64,000 nt of DNA from Dehalococcoidia bacterium. Its GTDB lineage: Bacteria > Chloroflexota > Dehalococcoidia > UBA2979. Position 1 is the first letter of the stretch. The number at the start of each line of letters is the position of its first letter. The translations under genes and the position numbers were made by a program. The stretch covers positions 12,476 through 76,475 of the forward strand of contig SHYQ01000002.1 in the NCBI GenBank assembly GCA_009692765.1, given 5' to 3'. Positions 5,341 through 25,057 of the stretch are shown here, piece by piece. The notes under the pieces are model-generated. The model saw only the letters and a program-made list of their open reading frames with translations. It was not told the origin of the DNA and searched no databases.

Positions 5341-5910
5341 GTGACGTACTACGACACGATCGAATCCCCCGTCGGCACGCTCTTCGTGGGCGGTTCAGCC
5401 GTCGGCGGCTCCGCGGCCGGCGTGCACCGCGTCGAGTTCGTGCGCGAAGCCGCAGACCTCGCGCGGTGGATCACCGCGATCGAACGCGACGCCGGCGCGG
5501 ACGTCGAGGATGGCCCGGCGCGGCGCGATAGCGCGGCCGCTGCCGAGGTGACGCGGCAGCTGCGCGCCTACTTCGCCGGCGAACGCGCCACCTTCGACCT
5601 GCCGCTCGCACCCCGAGGCACGGCGTTCCAGCAGCGCGTCTGGCTGGCGCTGCGCGCGATCCCGCACGGGCGCACCACCACCTACGGGGCGATCGCGGCC
5701 GCGATCGGGCAGCCCTCGGCGGCGCGCGCGGTCGGGCTCGCGATCGGGCGCAACCCGCTGGCGATCGTCGTGCCATGCCACCGCGTGATCGGCGCGGGGG
5801 GCGCGCTCACCGGCTACGCCGGCGGCCTCGACCGCAAGCGCTGGCTGCTCGCGCACGAAGGCGGCGCGCCGGCGCAGGCGGCGCTGCCCGCGCTCCTCGA
5901 GGCTTCGTAG
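5341..5910 (+). CDS. ogt: methylated-DNA--protein-cysteine methyltransferase (O6-alkylguanine repair)
   Basis: FQQRVWLALRAIPHGRTTTYGAIA...NPLAIVVPCHRVIGAGGALTGYAGG, with the PCHR active-site motif. Start GTG at 5341. Confidence 0.9.
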   Translation: MTYYDTIESPVGTLFVGGSAVGGSAAGVHRVEFVREAADLARWITAIERDAGADVEDGPARRDSAAAAEVTRQLRAYFAGERATFDLPLAPRGTAFQQRVWLALRAIPHGRTTTYGAIAAAIGQPSAARAVGLAIGRNPLAIVVPCHRVIGAGGALTGYAGGLDRKRWLLAHEGGAPAQAALPALLEAS

Positions 5911-5915
5911 TGGCG

Positions 5916-6338
5916 ATGAGCGCGGCGCGCCGCGTCACCGATCGCGTGTTCCGCCTGTGCGGTGTCGTCGCGCTGGTCGCGCTCGCCGCGACGGCCGCGT
6001 CGCTGGCGAGCGGGATCAGCGCGTGGCGCGTCCCCTTCGTGGCGGCGCACCTCGCGGCACTAATCGCGCTCGCGCCGCTGGGTGTGGTGCTCGCCGTCGA
6101 GGCGATCGCAGCGGCGCGTGTCGAGGCGGGGTCGCTCGCCGGCGTCCCGGCCGCCCTTGTGCGCCGGCGTCCCGTCGAGGTCACGCTGCTCGCGGTGGTC
6201 GCCGTCTCGATCGTGGTGTCGCTCGCGACGAACTTCTCAGAGGGCGCGCGGTGGGTGCGCACGACCGCCAACCTCGTGTCGGTCGCGGTCATCCTCGTGC
6301 TGGTGGCGCGCTACTTGCGCGCCGGGCGCGGAGCCTGA
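5916..6338 (+). CDS. hypothetical multi-pass membrane protein
   Basis: About 4 hydrophobic helices and no recognised family. Start (ATG 5916 or GTG 5910) abuts the ogt stop. Its last 35 bp are duplicated at 6957-6992. Confidence 0.5.
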   Translation: MSAARRVTDRVFRLCGVVALVALAATAASLASGISAWRVPFVAAHLAALIALAPLGVVLAVEAIAAARVEAGSLAGVPAALVRRRPVEVTLLAVVAVSIVVSLATNFSEGARWVRTTANLVSVAVILVLVARYLRAGRGA

Positions 6339-7335
6339 CGCGTGTCGAGGTGCTGCGCGGGAGGGGGAACCCTCACCCCCGGCCCCTCTCCCGCTTCGCG
6401 GGAGGGGGGAGTCAGAAATCAGAAGGTGATGCGAGGGGGCTGCGCCCCTCGCGCTCCCGGCGGAACGGCGCGCGGTAGGCGCCCCTACGGCGAGGTGGGA
6501 GCGGCCGGCGTCGAGGTGCTGGAGGGTGAACCCTCACCCCTGGCCCCTCTCCCGCGAAGCGGGAGAGGGGAGTCAGAAATCAGAAGGTGATGCGAGGGGC
6601 TGCGCCCCTCGCGCTCCCGGCGGAACGGCGCGCGGTAGGCGCGCCTGCGGCGAGGTGGGAGCGGCCGGCGTCGAGGTACTGCGCGGGAGGGGGAACCCTC
6701 ACCGCCGGCCCCTCTCCCGCTTCGCAGCAGAGGGGAGTCAGAAATCAGAAGGTGATGCGAGGGGGCTGCGCCCCTCGCGCTCCCAGCGGAACGGCGCGCG
6801 GTAGGCGCCCCTACGGCGAGGTGGGAGCGGCCGGCGTCGAGGTGCGGATGGGGGAAACCTCACCCCCGGCCCCTCTCCCACTTCGCAGGAGAGGGGAGTC
6901 AGAAATCCGCAGGTGATGCGAGGGGGCTGCGCCCCTCGCGCTCCCGGCGGAACGGCGCGCTACTTGCGCGCCGGGCGCGGAGCCTGACGCGCGTCGAGGT
7001 GCTGCGCGGGAGGGGGAACCCTCACCCCCGGCCCCTCTCCCGCTTCGCAGGAGTGGGGAGTTAGAAATCAGAAGGTGATGCGAGGGAGCTGCGCCCCTCG
7101 CGCTCCCGGCGGAACGGCGCGGGTAGGCGCGCCTACGGCGCGGGGGAGCGGCCGGCGCGCGGCGCCATCGAGCCGCATGGCGTGGTGCGCCCTCACCCTG
7201 CCCTCGCCCACTGCGTGGGCGAGGGTTCTGATCGGATCTGGCCCCCTCTCCTGCGGAGCGGGAGAGGGCGGGGGGTGAGGGCGCACCACGCCACGCCCCC
7301 GTATGAGCAGCGGCAGCGACGAACAGGCCGAAGGC
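6305..7335. repeat. tandem array of five ~160-bp composite hairpin-repeat units plus a nested-palindrome module
   Basis: Units start with GTCGAGGTRCTG at 6344, 6510, 6670, 6836 and 6993 (periods 166, 160, 166, 157). Each unit is module A plus TCAGAAATCAGAAGGTG plus module B. Module E lies at 7179-7292. Confidence 0.9.
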
Positions 7336-7336
7336 C

Positions 7337-8839
7337 TCAGACCGCCCAGGCCACGACAGCCTCGTCGTCGCGTATCACCTGCAGTGCGAGCGGCGGGTAG
7401 GGGTACAGTTGGCTCACGCGCATGCGCCGGCCGATCTCGATGACGACCTCGACGTGCTCGCGGGCGAGCGCGCCCGGCGAGTCGAGGCCCAGCGAGCGCG
7501 TCATCACCATCAGGTCCTCTTGCACCGCCGCGGCGTAGTTCGCGACGCGCGAGTGCTTCTGCGCCGGTACGAGGCCGCGCTGCCGCCAGCGGCTCTGCGT
7601 CGCGACCCCCGTTGGGCACTCGTTCGTGTGGCACTTCAGCGCCTAGATGCACCCGATCGAGAAGAGGAACCCGCGCCCGATGTTCACCATGTCAGCGCCC
7701 AGCGCCAGCGCGTACGCGGCCTCCGCGCCCGTGATGATGCGGCCCGCGCCGATGATCGTGATCTGATCGCGCACGCCCCAACGGCGGTAGGCGTCGTCCA
7801 CCACGACGAGCGCGTCGTGCAGCGGCACGCCCATGTGGTCCGACAGCGAGATCGGCGCCGCGCCGGTGCCGCCCTCGGCGCCGTCGACCGAGATGTAGTC
7901 GGGGCCGCGGCCCTCCTCGGCGCGCGCGCGCGCGAGGCCGTCGATGAACGCGGGGTCGCCGAGGACGATCTTGACGCCGACGGGCACCGGCACCTCGGCC
8001 TTCACGCGCTCGACGAAGTCGATCAGCTCGGGCAGCGTGCGGAACTCCGCGAAGCGGTTGGGGGAGAGCGAGTCCTCGCCCGCCGGGATGCCGCGGATGC
8101 CGGCGATCTCGGCGGTCACCTTCGCGGCGGGGAGGATGCCGCCTTTGCCGGGCTTGGCGCCCTGGCTGACCTTGATCTCGATCGCGCGGATCTGCTGCAT
8201 GCGGCCGATCTCGCGCAGGCGATCCCAGTCGAGGTCGCCGTTGTGGTGGCGCACGCCGTACTTCGCCGGCCCGATCTGGAAGATCACGTCGCCGCCGCCG
8301 CTGAGGTGGTACGGCGACAGGCCGCCTTCGCCGGTGTTGATGTAGACGCCCGCCTCGGCGGCGCCCCAGGCGAGGGCGCGCACGGCGGCCTCCGACAGCG
8401 CGCCGAAGGACATCGGCGCGATGTTGATGCGTGAGCGCGCCGCGAACGGGCGCGGGCGGTCGGGGCCGATCACGTGGGGCCGCGCGTCCTCGGGGGCCTC
8501 CTCGTGCAGCGTGGGGAAGGGCGAGGGGAGGAAGTGGAACTGGCCCGGGCGCCAGACGTCGTGCTGCGTGCCGAAGCCGACGGCGCTGTTCACGCCCTTC
8601 GCCGTCTGGTACACCCACGCCCGCTGCGAGCGGTAGAACGGGCGCTCCTCGAGGTCACTCGTGACGATGTACTGGCGGATCTCCGGCCCGATCGTCTCGA
8701 AGAAGTAGCGCAGACGCCCGAGCAGGGGGTACACTTGGCAGATCGTCTGCTTCGTCTGCAGCACGTCGACGACGCCGAGCGCGACGAGGGCCCCGATGGT
8801 GGCGATCGCGACGAGAGCCCAGGTAGGCATAGGAAACAC
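7337..8839 (-). pseudogene. FMN-binding glutamate synthase (GltB domain 2) family protein interrupted by an in-frame TAG
   Basis: The 398-aa ORF (7643-8839) ends ...FLFSIGCI*. It continues in the same frame as ALKCHTNECPTGVATQSRW...VANY... to the stop at 7337. The TAG (7643-7645) sits where the family has a conserved Gln (GCIQALKCH). Confidence 0.8.
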
Positions 8840-21940: not shown

Positions 21941-23130
21941 CGGGTATGGGCGGAGGCACCGGCACCCTCGACGCCCCTCTGGACGCGGAGATCGTGATCG
22001 TCGGCGCGGGCGTCGTCGGGCTCGCCATCGCGCAGCGGCTCGCCGCGGACGGCCGCTCGCTAGTGGTGGTCGAGCGGCACGAGGGCTTCTCGCGCGAAAC
22101 GTCCTCGCACAACAGCGGCGTGGTGCACGCGTCGATCTACTACGAGACCGGGTCGCTCAAGCACCGGCTCTGCTGGGAGGGCAACGCGCGCCTCTACGCG
22201 TGGGCGGACGCGCACTCCGTGCCCGTGCGGCGCACCGGCAAACTCATCGTGGCACTCGCCGAGGAGGAGCGCGCCGGCCTCGACGAGGTGTACCGGCAGG
22301 CGGTCGCGAACGAGGTGCGCGGCGTCGAGCGCATCACCGGCGCGCGCGCGCGCGCGCTGGAGCCGCACGTCCCCACCGTGGAGGCGGTGTGGTCGCCGAG
22401 CACCGGCGTCGTCGACGCGTACGCCCTCGCGCGGTCGTACGCGGCGGAGGCGCTCGCCCACGACGCGCTGATCGTCTACCGCCACACGCTCGTCGAGGCG
22501 GAGCGCGTGGCGGGCGGCTTCGCGCTGACGCTGCGCGACGCCGACGGTGCGACCTCGACGTTGCGCTGCGCGGCGCTGGTGAACAGCGCAGGCCTCGCCG
22601 CCGCGAGCGTCGCCGCGCTGCTCGGCTACCCCCTGGACGGTGGCGTGCTCGATGGCGTCTCCGACGTCGAGGCGCCGCTGCTGCGGCAGACGGCGAACCG
22701 TGGCCGCTACTACGACATCGTGGACGCCGCGGTCGCACGGCTCGTGTCGCGGCCGGTGTACCCGCTGCCGGAGCACGCCGCGGGCGGCCTGGGCGTGCAC
22801 CTCACCGTGGACACCGAGGGGGGACTGCACCTTGGGCCCGCGACGGAGTGGATGGCCGAGGACGAGCCGCTGGACTACCTCAACCTCGACGACGCAGAGC
22901 GCCGCGCGACGTTCCTGCGCGCGGGGCAGCGCTTCCTGCCCGCGCTGCGCGACGACCAGATCGCGCCGGGGCAGGTGGGCTACCGCCCGAAGGTGCAGCG
23001 GCCCGGCGAGGGCATCGCCGACTTCCTCGTCTGGCACGACCGCGGCTACGTGCACCTCGGCGGCATCGAGTCGCCGGGCCTCACGGCGAGCCTGCCGCTC
23101 GCCGACCTCGTCGCCGCAGCGTTAGGCTGA
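21937..23130 (+). CDS. FAD-dependent oxidoreductase, L-2-hydroxyglutarate oxidase (LhgO)-like
   Basis: IVIVGAGVVGLAIAQRLA (GxGxxG), ETSSHNSGVVHASIYYETGSLK, C-terminal GIESPGLTASL. The GTG overlaps the upstream stop (GTGA at 21937-21940); alternative ATG at 21946. Confidence 0.8.
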   Translation: MTGMGGGTGTLDAPLDAEIVIVGAGVVGLAIAQRLAADGRSLVVVERHEGFSRETSSHNSGVVHASIYYETGSLKHRLCWEGNARLYAWADAHSVPVRRTGKLIVALAEEERAGLDEVYRQAVANEVRGVERITGARARALEPHVPTVEAVWSPSTGVVDAYALARSYAAEALAHDALIVYRHTLVEAERVAGGFALTLRDADGATSTLRCAALVNSAGLAAASVAALLGYPLDGGVLDGVSDVEAPLLRQTANRGRYYDIVDAAVARLVSRPVYPLPEHAAGGLGVHLTVDTEGGLHLGPATEWMAEDEPLDYLNLDDAERRATFLRAGQRFLPALRDDQIAPGQVGYRPKVQRPGEGIADFLVWHDRGYVHLGGIESPGLTASLPLADLVAAALG

Positions 23131-23396
23131 CCGGGATGGGCCCACTCGAAGATCCCGGCCGGTTCTACTGACTGTGCTTCTCAGAGATGGCTCGCCGGGC
23201 TCGTCGCGTCGGCGCTCCGCTGAGGGCACCGCGAGCGACACGCCCCCGCTCGAGGAGTCTCGCCCTCGTCGCCACCTCGTCGCCGCGGCGCTAGGCTGTC
23301 GGGCATGGGCCCACTCGAAGATCCCGGCCGGTTCTAATGACTGTGCTTCTCAGAGATGGCTCGCCGACCTCGTCGCAGCGGCGTTAGGCTGAGGGC
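23098..23396. repeat. local tandem duplications of the junction between the oxidoreductase 3' end and a small-ORF 5' end
   Basis: CTCGCCGACCTCGTCGCNGCNGCGTTAGGCTGA recurs at ~23098, ~23193 (degenerate), ~23270 and ~23362. ATGGGCCCACTCGARGATCC recurs at 23136, ~23306 and 23397. Confidence 0.85.
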
Positions 23397-23510
23397 ATGG
23401 GCCCACTCGAGGATCCTGGGCGGTACTACTGGAAGTGGCTCGCCATCGGTGGGGGGCTGCTGATCGTCTACGCGATCGAGCGCACCATCCGCACCGGCGC
23501 GCTCTTCTAG
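23397..23510 (+). CDS. candidate 37-aa single-TM small protein
   Basis: MGPLEDPGRYYWKWLAIGGGLLIVYAIERTIRTGALF*. Not in the ORF track (too short). Two upstream duplicated 5' ends are truncated after 10-11 codons. Confidence 0.35.
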   Translation: MGPLEDPGRYYWKWLAIGGGLLIVYAIERTIRTGALF

Positions 23511-23999: not shown

Positions 24000-25057
24000 C
24001 CTGCGAGCGGATGACCGCCCTCGAGGTGTGGTGGCGCGCCTTCGCCCCGCCCGAGGCCGTCGATTCCGCCCGCGCGCTCTACGCGCTGACGCCGCGCTGG
24101 TCGAGCGGCAACCTCCCCTTCGTCGACGTCCCCTATGACCCCGCGCGCGTGGCGCACTGGGCGGACGCCGCCCGCGTCGCGGACTACGCCGCCGCACTCC
24201 CGTCCGGCGGCACGCGCATCCTCGACTTCGGTCCCGGCGACGGGTGGCCCGCGCTGCCGCTGGCCGCGGCGCTGCCGCGCGCGCGCGTCGTCGGCGTCGA
24301 CCCCGCGCCGCGCCGCGTCGAGGTATGCGTGGCGAACGCGCGCCGGCTCGCCCTCGGCAACGCGGCGTTCGCCACCGGCGACGGCGCGGCGCTGCCGTTC
24401 GCGAGCGCGTCGTTCGACCTCGTCACCGCGTCCCAGTCGCTCGAGGAGACGCGCGACCCCTCGGCGGTGCTCGCGGAGATCGCGCGTGTGCTGCGGCCCG
24501 GCGGCGTGCTACGCGCGTCGTACCAGGTGTGGACGCTCCCGGCGCGCCGCTTCGAGACGGTCACGCTCGTCGAGGGCCGCGACCTCGATGGCGCGGACGC
24601 GCTGCTCTACACGTACGCGGTGCGCTGCCAGGAGCCGCCGCGCGAGCGGCGCTACGTGCTCGTGCTGCCGCGCGAGGGCGAGGCGGCTGCGGTCCACGCG
24701 CAGGCGCTGGTTGCCTCGGCGGACGCGCCGCGCGCCTACGGCGAGACGCTGCTGACGCGCCGGTCGCCCCTCGGCGCGCCGCTGCTGCGCCACCTCGCCC
24801 CGTTCGCGCGGCGCTCGTACGTCGTGGAGCTGCACCGCTGGACCACGGCGTGGCTCGTGCAGGCGCTGCGGCGCGCGGGGTTCGCGGAGGTGCGCGCGAC
24901 GGTGCACGCGGGCGACCTCGCGCGGTCGTTCGCGCGCGCGGCGATCGCGCGCGGCGACCTGGACGCGCTCGCGCCGCACTTCGAGGTGATCACGCGCGCG
25001 CTCGGCGAGGCCGCGGCGCAGCAGCCCGGCGAGTCGATGGTGACGGCGGTGCGGTAG
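23996..25057 (+). CDS. class I SAM-dependent methyltransferase
   Basis: RILDFGPGDGWPALPLA (motif I), FDLVTASQSLEE, VLRPGGVL. The ATG overlaps the GNAT stop (ATGA at 23996-23999). Confidence 0.8.
   Translation: MTCERMTALEVWWRAFAPPEAVDSARALYALTPRWSSGNLPFVDVPYDPARVAHWADAARVADYAAALPSGGTRILDFGPGDGWPALPLAAALPRARVVGVDPAPRRVEVCVANARRLALGNAAFATGDGAALPFASASFDLVTASQSLEETRDPSAVLAEIARVLRPGGVLRASYQVWTLPARRFETVTLVEGRDLDGADALLYTYAVRCQEPPRERRYVLVLPREGEAAAVHAQALVASADAPRAYGETLLTRRSPLGAPLLRHLAPFARRSYVVELHRWTTAWLVQALRRAGFAEVRATVHAGDLARSFARAAIARGDLDALAPHFEVITRALGEAAAQQPGESMVTAVR

Follow-up and report, generated by a model that had tools for sequence, protein, structure and literature searches.

A five-unit tandem array of BoxC/TMECO-type repeats behind a membrane-protein gene in a Dehalococcoidia assembly

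We find that a small membrane-protein gene in an uncultured freshwater Dehalococcoidia bacterium (Chloroflexota) is followed by a five-unit tandem array of composite repeats, and that these are BoxC/TMECO-type triplex-motif repeats in a BIME-like mosaic. All coordinates refer to the window, the whole 64-kb stretch of DNA that was analysed. In the reading that we favour and consider probable, a dispersed composite element inserted behind the gene, was amplified in place and was later altered by a microhomology event; replication would have driven these steps, and no function is needed to account for them. By itself the array is junk-like, an instructive but ordinary case of repeat-driven instability in which no hint of a gene or of an RNA was seen. 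A triplex/hairpin repeat family has here turned a convergent gap of zero length into 1 kb of DNA plus a copied piece of gene, which is local instability of the sort ascribed to the E. coli motif by Holder et al. (PMC4666352). Moreover, the motif is common in the Chloroflexota, a phylum for which that study has no report.

A repeat-filled spacer between convergent genes

The source assembly is fragmentary (1.26 Mb in 67 contigs, 71.8% G+C, 76% completeness). The array lies downstream of an ogt/MGMT gene, whose synteny is kept in 8 relatives, and of the membrane-protein gene, which is 39-66% identical to its syntenic counterparts and for which a Pfam search returned no family (Table 1). The spacer between the latter and the convergent downstream gene (6339-7336, 998 bp) is filled with repeat DNA. 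A comparison of the orthologous locus in related genomes, suggested in a preliminary description of this DNA, finds both the spacer and the modules missing there. In 7 relatives with the same convergent gene pair the stop codons are separated by -25 to +22 bp, and array modules occur in 0 of the 10 orthologous loci examined; the nearest relative is 83% identical at the protein level. Given this spacing of the stop codons in the 7 relatives, the entire 998-bp spacer is a lineage-specific addition. An exact-protein look-up returned no other assembly of the locus, and a scan of JGI metagenome contigs with gene-end 31-mers gave no match.

In the downstream Glu_synthase-domain gene the assembly has an in-frame TAG at 7643-7645. 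Position 7645 is G in all contigs of the sequencing runs X1, X2 and X3, so that the codon there is CAG, not TAG.

Anatomy of the array

Tandem Repeats Finder reports one array (6360-7157, period 161, 4.9 copies, 86% matches, score 1189), and a repeat finder returned the same families at this place. The units, here called U1 to U5, start at 6344, 6510, 6670, 6836 and 6993, as the preliminary description had it, and all five open with GTCGAGGT. When cut at these starts they measure 166, 160, 166, 157 and 168 nt, with pairwise identities of 81-96%. The composition that had been given for every unit, with an exact linker TCAGAAATCAGAAGGTG and tail GGCGAGGTGGGAGCGGCCGGC between and behind modules A and B, holds for U1-U3 only, and U4 and U5 carry variants. 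In U1 the order is GTCGAGG box, truncated H0, triplex/hairpin module A, linker, hairpins H2 and H3, and a co-amplified flank. The hairpins H1, H2 and H3 measure 27, 22 and 19-24 nt, respectively; in U2 the H1 loop is flipped (GAA, not TTC), which yields a perfect 12+3+12 palindrome. A 'long' left end is common to U1, U3 and U5, and a 5-nt deletion to U2 and U4. Downstream of U5, a nested palindrome holds two further triplex-type modules (7190-7225, minus strand; 7242-7281, plus strand). Across the window the module cores give 17-18 matches, against 0-0.05 in shuffled sequences. A CRISPR array was considered and rejected: what recurs is the complete unit of 160 bp, with no unique spacers in between.

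The array is non-coding repeat DNA. The preliminary description had all three forward frames open across it, giving repetitive pseudo-peptides; this proved wrong, as no forward frame is free of stops (7, 5 and 4 between 6305 and 7335), nor is any reverse frame (5, 6 and 9). The longest ORFs in the array match no Pfam family, and with stops in all six frames a protein-coding repeat is rejected. An Rfam scan of 5800-7800 at E values up to 10 returned only chance microRNA-like matches far below thresholds, and the fold of the whole unit, as RNA or DNA, is no better than that of shuffles (z = -1.2). A search for RNA sequencing runs came back empty.

Table 1. Features at the array locus, with positions in the window
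Feature	Position	Strand	Evidence
ogt/MGMT (methylated-DNA-protein-cysteine methyltransferase), upstream neighbour	5371-5910	+	Pfam PF01035 E=1.7e-37, PF02870
Small membrane-protein gene, 140 aa	5916-6338	+	ORF; syntenic in 8 relatives
Original gene-end segment; GGCGCGC 6305-6311, stop TGA 6336-6338	6305-6343	+	
U1, 166 nt, 'long' type	6344-6509	+	Unit alignment, dispersed-copy comparison
U1 triplex motif (predicted)	6370-6409	-	10/10 triads
U2, 160 nt, 'short' type	6510-6669	+	Unit alignment
U2 triplex motif (predicted)	6531-6569	-	10/10 triads
U3, 166 nt, 'long' type, 96.4% identical to U1	6670-6835	+	Unit alignment
U4, 'short' type, truncated within hairpin H3 at GGCGCGC	6836-6960	+	Unit alignment
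U4 triplex motif (predicted)	6857-6895	-	9/10 triads
Second gene-end copy with TGA 6985-6987; 7-nt microhomology overlap with U4	6954-6992	+	38/38 identity
U5, 'long' type, nearest U1, then original right flank	6993-7150	+	Unit alignment
Nested palindrome, outer stem 20-24 nt; also a dispersed element	7179-7292		Repeat finder, pattern matches
Convergent downstream gene, Glu_synthase-domain FMN protein	7337-8839	-	Pfam PF01645 on both pieces

Module A resembles the BoxC/TMECO triplex motif

BoxC, or 'TMECO', is a G/C-rich intrastrand triplex motif that earlier went by the name 'PIT motifs' (Holder et al. 2015, Nucleic Acids Res 43:10126, PMC4666352). Its published pattern is CCCTCNCCC-N3-6-GGGNGAGGG-N3-GGGNGAGGG, and type B of E. 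coli reads CCCTCTCCC-TGT-GGGAGAGGG-CCG-GGGTGAGGG (PMC4666352). Holder et al. found the motif only in 262 proteobacterial genomes, where it is always intergenic, without strand bias and without a link to transposons. The E. coli sequence forms a stable triplex as single-stranded DNA (by CD and NMR) that was not detected in vivo, and it has no promoter or terminator activity according to earlier work cited there. Between E. coli strains, rearrangement is also more frequent at TMECO loci than at control loci, and the authors propose that replication fork stalling, slippage and illegitimate recombination occur at the motif (PMC4666352).

On the minus strand, module A reads CCCCTCTCCC-GCGAAGC-GGGAGAGGGG-CCG-GGGGTGAGGG. 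Its three blocks, their order and the CCG of the second loop are as in E. coli type B. Judged by its sequence, module A represents the BoxC/TMECO motif in a variant with a long loop. Like the published motif it occurs in many copies, lies between genes, shows no strand bias, forms inverted pairs and sits at structurally unstable loci. It differs in its stems of 10 nt (9 in the published motif), in its first loop of 7 nt (GC-NNN-GC, which adds two base pairs), and in forming part of a composite of 135-200 nt that has two or three hairpins besides it. The host also differs, Chloroflexota here and Proteobacteria in PMC4666352, and the triplex is here a prediction. Lastly, we see tandem amplification, whereas the published rearrangements are mostly small intergenic changes, deletions and mutations of the motif.

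The three TMECO 9-mers are exact on the minus strand of U2, have at most 2 substitutions in U1, U4 and U5, and are degenerate in U3. A third-strand test that allows G*G.C, A*A.T and T*A.T triads over at least 8 positions predicts a triplex in U1, U2, U4 and U5, the last with 10/10 allowed triads. If the stems are taken as 9 nt, the first loop has 7 nt and the second 4-5 nt, outside the published loop lengths, and owing to the 7-nt first loop the strict published pattern has 0 matches in the genome, as in the shuffled control. Once the loops are relaxed to 3-9 and 2-6 nt, the genome has 50 matches (40 per Mb; 23 forward and 27 reverse), and with up to 2 substitutions allowed as well it has 135; both patterns give 0 in the shuffled control.

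A dispersed mosaic family

The units belong to a family that is dispersed through the genome. There are 76 cores of module A and 88 of module B in the 1.26-Mb assembly, and within the window each core occurs about 12 further times against none expected. Over unit positions ~10-143, at least 27 dispersed composites are 85-94% identical to the units, and the composite element measures ~135-200 nt. An alignment of the copies reveals a sharply conserved core, from GGAACCCTCACC… to …GGCGCGCCTCGGA, with optional modules on either side, that is, a mosaic build. Multi-copy short repeats form 183 blocks (median 175 nt) and make up 3.3% of the assembly; the array locus, at 959 nt, is the largest of these blocks. 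By a crude GC3-based gene call, 66 of the 76 A cores lie outside ORFs, and convergent-gene gaps are enriched in them, holding 24 of these 66 compared with 20% of all gene pairs. Their orientation relative to the upstream gene is without bias (18 same, 15 opposite). The element often stands directly 3' of a stop codon and has a conserved GTCGAGG box at its start.

Tandem clusters of the family are found at no fewer than 9 other loci; for instance, contig 44 has a five-unit array that likewise begins directly after a stop codon. A diverged local triplication of a gene boundary lies elsewhere in the window (23097-23420), separate from the array. Together, these clusters and the triplication demonstrate that local duplication across gene ends does occur in this genome. 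Across the genus and several sister genera the family is present at 74-86% identity and is often locally clustered. The H1 loops come as complementary pairs (TTC/GAA, GGA/TCC) and some of the stem changes are compensatory. By analogy with quasi-palindrome mutagenesis, both observations would fit flipping in place and hairpin-templated correction of the palindrome.

As described by Di Nocera et al. (2013, PMC3733652) and Ton-Hoang et al. (2012, PMC3333891), the REP and BIME sequences of enterobacteria and pseudomonads are short imperfect G+C-rich palindromes of high copy number, extragenic with a preference for the 3' ends of genes, and they join other short motifs in mosaic clusters that include tandem arrays; REPINs are moved by RAYT transposases. 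The unit hairpins share the likeness, as imperfect extragenic palindromes of 20-40 nt in high copy and in mosaic clusters. However, the modules here run head to tail in one orientation, whereas BIMEs are made of alternating inverted REPs. REP tags at the base of the stem are rare or missing (GTAG 0/168 and CGTC 4/168 beside H1; 0/88 beside H2), and GTAG occurs only within some H3 loops (GGTAG in 23 copies, GGCAG in 26). No Y1/RAYT transposase (PF01797) was found in this genome and 7 congeners, which are MAGs of 72-93% completeness, and the 4 genomes with PF01797 matches do not coincide with the repeat-rich ones.

The terminal inverted repeats of a MITE are absent: the first 40 nt of the consensus, aligned to its reverse-complemented last 40 nt, score 6, less than the shuffle mean of 9.7. 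The array is also reminiscent of the MIRU minisatellites of mycobacteria, which are dispersed intergenic tandem arrays with units of 50-100+ bp in a high-G+C genome and whose copy number is expected to vary from strain to strain. It is likewise an intergenic tandem array of a dispersed family, but the MIRU sequence is unrelated and has no hairpin or triplex modules. Strains in lake populations may be distinguishable by the copy number of the present array.

Probable growth of the array in place

Each unit boundary consists of ~25 nt (CCCTACGGCGAGGTGGGAGCGGCCGGC) that are found in the array only, with a close variant after U5, directly before unique sequence; the dispersed copies stop short of this stretch. 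A boundary that is confined to the array and matches the flank behind U5 argues that amplification took in a single element and the flank to its right, and we conclude that the array appears to have grown by tandem duplication of this one element plus flank rather than by repeated insertion. The preliminary description had also placed local duplication above independent insertions. It drew this from the copied gene end, to which the array-specific boundary is superior as evidence, and the ~650-bp tandem duplication that it envisaged is, as a simple event, not fully supported. The near-identity of U1 and U3, together with the deletion in U2 and U4, points to the duplication of a two-unit block.

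The reappearance of the gene end within the array, stop codon included, was correctly noted before. We find that 6305-6342 and 6954-6991 are identical over 38 nt at an offset of 649 bp, and that the copied segment takes in the last 34 nt of the membrane-protein gene (6305-6338). The match is followed by one mismatch (6343 T, 6992 C) and then by 56 further identical positions (6344-6399 and 6993-7048); the alignment at this offset has 5 mismatches in 166 nt. There are only two copies of the gene-end sequence in the genome, both at this locus. The copy is indeed fused inside module B at a microhomology, which is the 7-nt GGCGCGC and not GGCGCG as first described. This joint is common to the gene (…GTGGCGCGCTACTTG…) and to hairpin H3 of module B (…AACGGCGCGCGGTAGG…), and the junction reads …CGGAACGGCGCGCTACTTGCGCGCC….

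The order seen is gene end, U1 to truncated U4, gene end, one unit and tail. A plain 649-bp tandem duplication instead predicts gene end, U1 to truncated U4, gene end and U1 to truncated U4 once more. With a second four-unit block predicted, this duplication would require an extra deletion, and as the sole event it is rejected. In the second copy, 32 nt of gene end stand in place of the final 32 nt of U4; the 7-nt microhomology forms their left border, and the right border is a unit start, which is also the native neighbour of the gene end. A one-step, microhomology-templated patch is a better fit to this arrangement than the simple duplication.

We propose that one dispersed composite of ~135-200 nt, made up of a GTCGAGG box, a triplex/hairpin module of the BoxC/TMECO type, a linker and two more G+C hairpins, landed just past the stop codon of the membrane-protein gene. 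This copy and ~25 nt of its right flank would then have been amplified in situ by tandem duplication, with the long-short dimer U1U2 probably duplicated to give U3U4. A later microhomology event, anchored by GGCGCGC on the left and by unit homology on the right, may have copied the 32 nt of gene end (from 6312) onto the boundary of U4 and U5, either as a templated patch or through a 649-bp duplication and a subsequent deletion. These steps were likely driven by stalled replication, slippage and template switching where repeats form structures. What the data show is how the array is built, that its units belong to the dispersed family, that the site is empty in relatives, that the flank was amplified along with the element, and that the DNA is non-coding. 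Both this order of events and the replication-based mechanism are what we infer; the mechanism is borrowed from the proposal for the E. coli motif, whose triplex went undetected in vivo.

Read-level support

Logan contigs of public short-read runs served as the read check, and those of X1 and X2 hold both flanks exactly at ~16x. On the left, the gene runs directly into U1 (5831-6386, ~16x in both runs); on the right, 7264-7598 is exact in both, as is the segment from U5 into the tail (7095-7211, 11-13x). Words specific to U2 (6550-6614) were found, with a depth of 15-24x in X1, as were words common to U1 and U3 (6738-6775, ~26x). The contigs of the two runs thus contain three unit variants, of the U2, U1/U3 and U5 types, each at about single-copy depth. 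No contig of either run covers any unit boundary (0 on 6476-6536, even at 88% likeness), contains stretches specific to U3 or U4, or crosses the joint 6960|6961, and no run in the index contains the boundary words. Repeat words reach 5,000-19,000x in X1 and X2, so that graph simplification could have removed paths of 16x, although the path from U5 to the tail survived.

Position 6343 is T in X2 and C in X1, and the second gene-end copy carries the X1 allele. Close to the copied gene end there is a single mismatch, at a distance of exactly 38 nt from the edge of the copy, which is where a variant unitig at k=39 would start. This placement is suggestive of such a unitig; its probability by chance is ~8% at the observed 3% divergence. 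A single k-mer size does not fit both ends of the joint and was rejected (k of 44-51 for the left edge, 32-39 for the right edge). In sum, the preliminary description is accurate for the assembled sequence and was confirmed in part at the level of reads: a multi-unit array is likely real, and the exact unit number and the second gene end are seen in the assembly only.

Alternative explanations

The most serious competitor, to which we give a substantial but clearly smaller chance than to in-place amplification, is that the array is in part an assembly artefact. The true locus would then be shorter, with 1-3 units, and strain variants threaded in series, edges joined over a short overlap, or both, would account for the second gene end and for too high a count of units. 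The X1 and X2 contigs indeed lack the boundaries and the junction though the flanks stand at ~16x, and there are two alleles at 6343, of which the second copy has that of X1. The mismatch 38 nt from the copy edge fits k=39, or k=33 within the 7-nt ambiguity; some scaffolders join edges on overlaps of at least 6 nt; and the TAG at 7643-7645 is in none of the three runs. However, a de Bruijn graph makes no joint on a 7-nt overlap without spanning reads, and the two ends of this joint are not explained by one value of k. The three boundaries and U1 to U4 each have variants of their own, which must come from reads somewhere, and three unit variants were seen in X1 and X2. In addition, tandem repeats usually come out of an assembler collapsed, not expanded, and Logan contigs drop low-depth paths between words at 5,000-19,000x, which makes absence from them weak evidence. 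The array marks a place at which assemblies of such genomes can least be trusted.

It is highly improbable that a mobile element, targeting either its own end or a fixed site, inserted several times independently to give the head-to-tail units. The element is dispersed, often lies directly after stop codons, starts with a conserved GTCGAGG box and is commonly clustered, all of which would suit such targeting. Yet the ~25 nt between units are in no dispersed copy and equal the unique flank after U5, the units follow a pattern of period 2 (U1/U3 at 96.4%, the 5-nt deletion in U2/U4), and neither terminal inverted repeats nor, in this genome and 7 congeners, a Y1/RAYT transposase were found. Selection of the array as a functional block that would stabilise RNA 3' ends, bar transcription or bind proteins, as has been proposed for REP/BIME clusters, also seems unlikely to us, if less so than serial insertion. 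In its favour are the placement at 3' ends, with 24/66 intergenic A cores between convergent genes against 20% of gene pairs, and the compensatory changes that maintain the hairpins. Furthermore, the gene pair overlaps or nearly touches in relatives, so that convergent transcription would collide there; these relatives nevertheless manage without the array. The A cores show no orientation bias to the upstream gene, the locus has no Rfam match and a whole-unit fold no better than shuffles, the sequence has no T-runs of the intrinsic-terminator kind, and the E. coli motif itself lacks promoter and terminator activity (earlier work cited by Holder et al., PMC4666352). Amplification in place followed by a microhomology event thus stays our preferred explanation.

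The motif beyond this genome

The relaxed pattern is present in 177 of 401 sampled Chloroflexota genomes (44%; 93 of 218 genera). Some of these genomes have 200-490 copies, a reversed-pattern control gives essentially zero, and some copies match E. coli type A letter for letter. A literature search found nothing on such repeats in Dehalococcoidia. We offer as a speculative idea, one that we doubt more than we believe, that BoxC/TMECO is no proteobacterial speciality but a trans-phylum motif, its stems identical in E. coli and Chloroflexota, and that in the present freshwater Dehalococcoidia lineage it is carried within a larger composite that amplifies in place and has reached ~100 copies without tags, terminal inverted repeats or RAYT, which would point to a so far unrecognised sequence-specific process of copying or maintenance. 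Such a process could involve, for example, a conserved host factor or structure-templated repair, and arrays like the present one would then be natural records of it. The repeat has no match among phage records, and in plasmid and chromid records module A is the only part present, in Cupriavidus, Azospirillum and Sulfitobacter. On the Cupriavidus chromid, module A occurs at 23 places with 91% identity, as inverted pairs.

Variation within the modules and their occurrence elsewhere

We compared the orientation of the tip of hairpin H1, the hairpin of module A, between units of the array and across the genome. Genome-wide, the tip is found in both orientations, as TTC (more than 34 copies), GAA (4 copies), GGA (6 copies) and TCC (6 copies). 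The palindrome tips of this hairpin seem to flip in place, and compensatory changes in the stem occur too.

The BoxC/TMECO triplex type to which module A belongs extends well beyond this genome. Using a relaxed pattern (loops of 3-9 and 2-6 nt), we find matches in 177 of the 401 Chloroflexota genomes sampled (G136, G098, G086, G088, G335, G383 and others), with a reversed control giving approximately zero. Some of these genomes hold 200-490 matches each, and some Chloroflexota copies are identical to the E. coli type A element (CCCTCTCCCTTTGGGAGAGGGTTAGGGTGAGGG). In the chromid of Cupriavidus sp. EM10 (NZ_CP076061.1), this same motif occurs as an inverted pair (CCCTCACCCCCGCCCCTCTCCCGCTCGCGGGAGAGGGGAG … CCCCTCTCCCGCTCTGCGGAGAGGGGCCGGGGTGAGGG), and there are 23 places with such pairs on this chromid.

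Module B was examined in two public sequencing runs, X1 and X2, where its 31-mers reach ~16,500-19,000x against ~16x for the unique flanks of the array. This depth is roughly ten times what the copy number of this genome accounts for. Words identical to these must also be present in other populations of that lake.

Coordinates of the features described in this section
Feature	Location
H1 tips compared for orientation in the array	window 6544-6570 vs 6383-6409
Module B 31-mers	window 6934-6951
In-frame TAG of the Glu_synthase-domain gene	window 7643-7645
Duplication spanning a gene boundary	window 23097-23420
Second-largest tandem cluster	G000 (this genome), contig C44:3238-3967
Repeated 48-nt stretch	G000, contig C61:22889-22936 and 24914-24961
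Inverted motif pair of Cupriavidus	L078 (NZ_CP076061.1) 401-520

Single-nucleotide differences in and beside the array

The two gene-end copies of the array differ at a single position (6343 versus 6992), at a distance of exactly 38 nt from the copy's left edge. The allele at 6992, in the second copy, is the one that run X1 has at native position 6343. This could be the signature of an assembler (k = 39).

In the convergent Glu_synthase-domain gene, an in-frame TAG is found in this assembly only. Position 7645 is G, giving CAG (Gln), in all contigs of X1 (76.4/76.4), X2 (23/23) and a third run, X3. Recoding is less likely here than a rare allele or an error of the assembly, one of which probably accounts for the TAG.

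Other local repeats

A second local duplication spanning a gene boundary is built of non-family sequence: a gene end and the beginning of the small membrane ORF that follows it (…CTCGTCGCCGCAGCGTTAGGCTGA…ATGGGCCCACTCGAAGATCC…) are present in three copies, diverged from one another, in ~330 bp. In the tandem cluster that ranks second in size, there are five units of ~127 nt, built of module A and a variant H2 (GTGGGGGCTGCGCCCCCAC); the cluster begins with CGTCGAG immediately 3' of a stop codon. Its inter-unit spacers have diverged, and this cluster is therefore probably older. Lastly, a unique 48-nt stretch occurs twice, 2,025 bp apart, each time followed by an apparent 3' half of a tRNA gene (…GGGATTCGAACCCGCGAC) that is repeated along with it; such an arrangement is reminiscent of att sites flanking a small integrated element.
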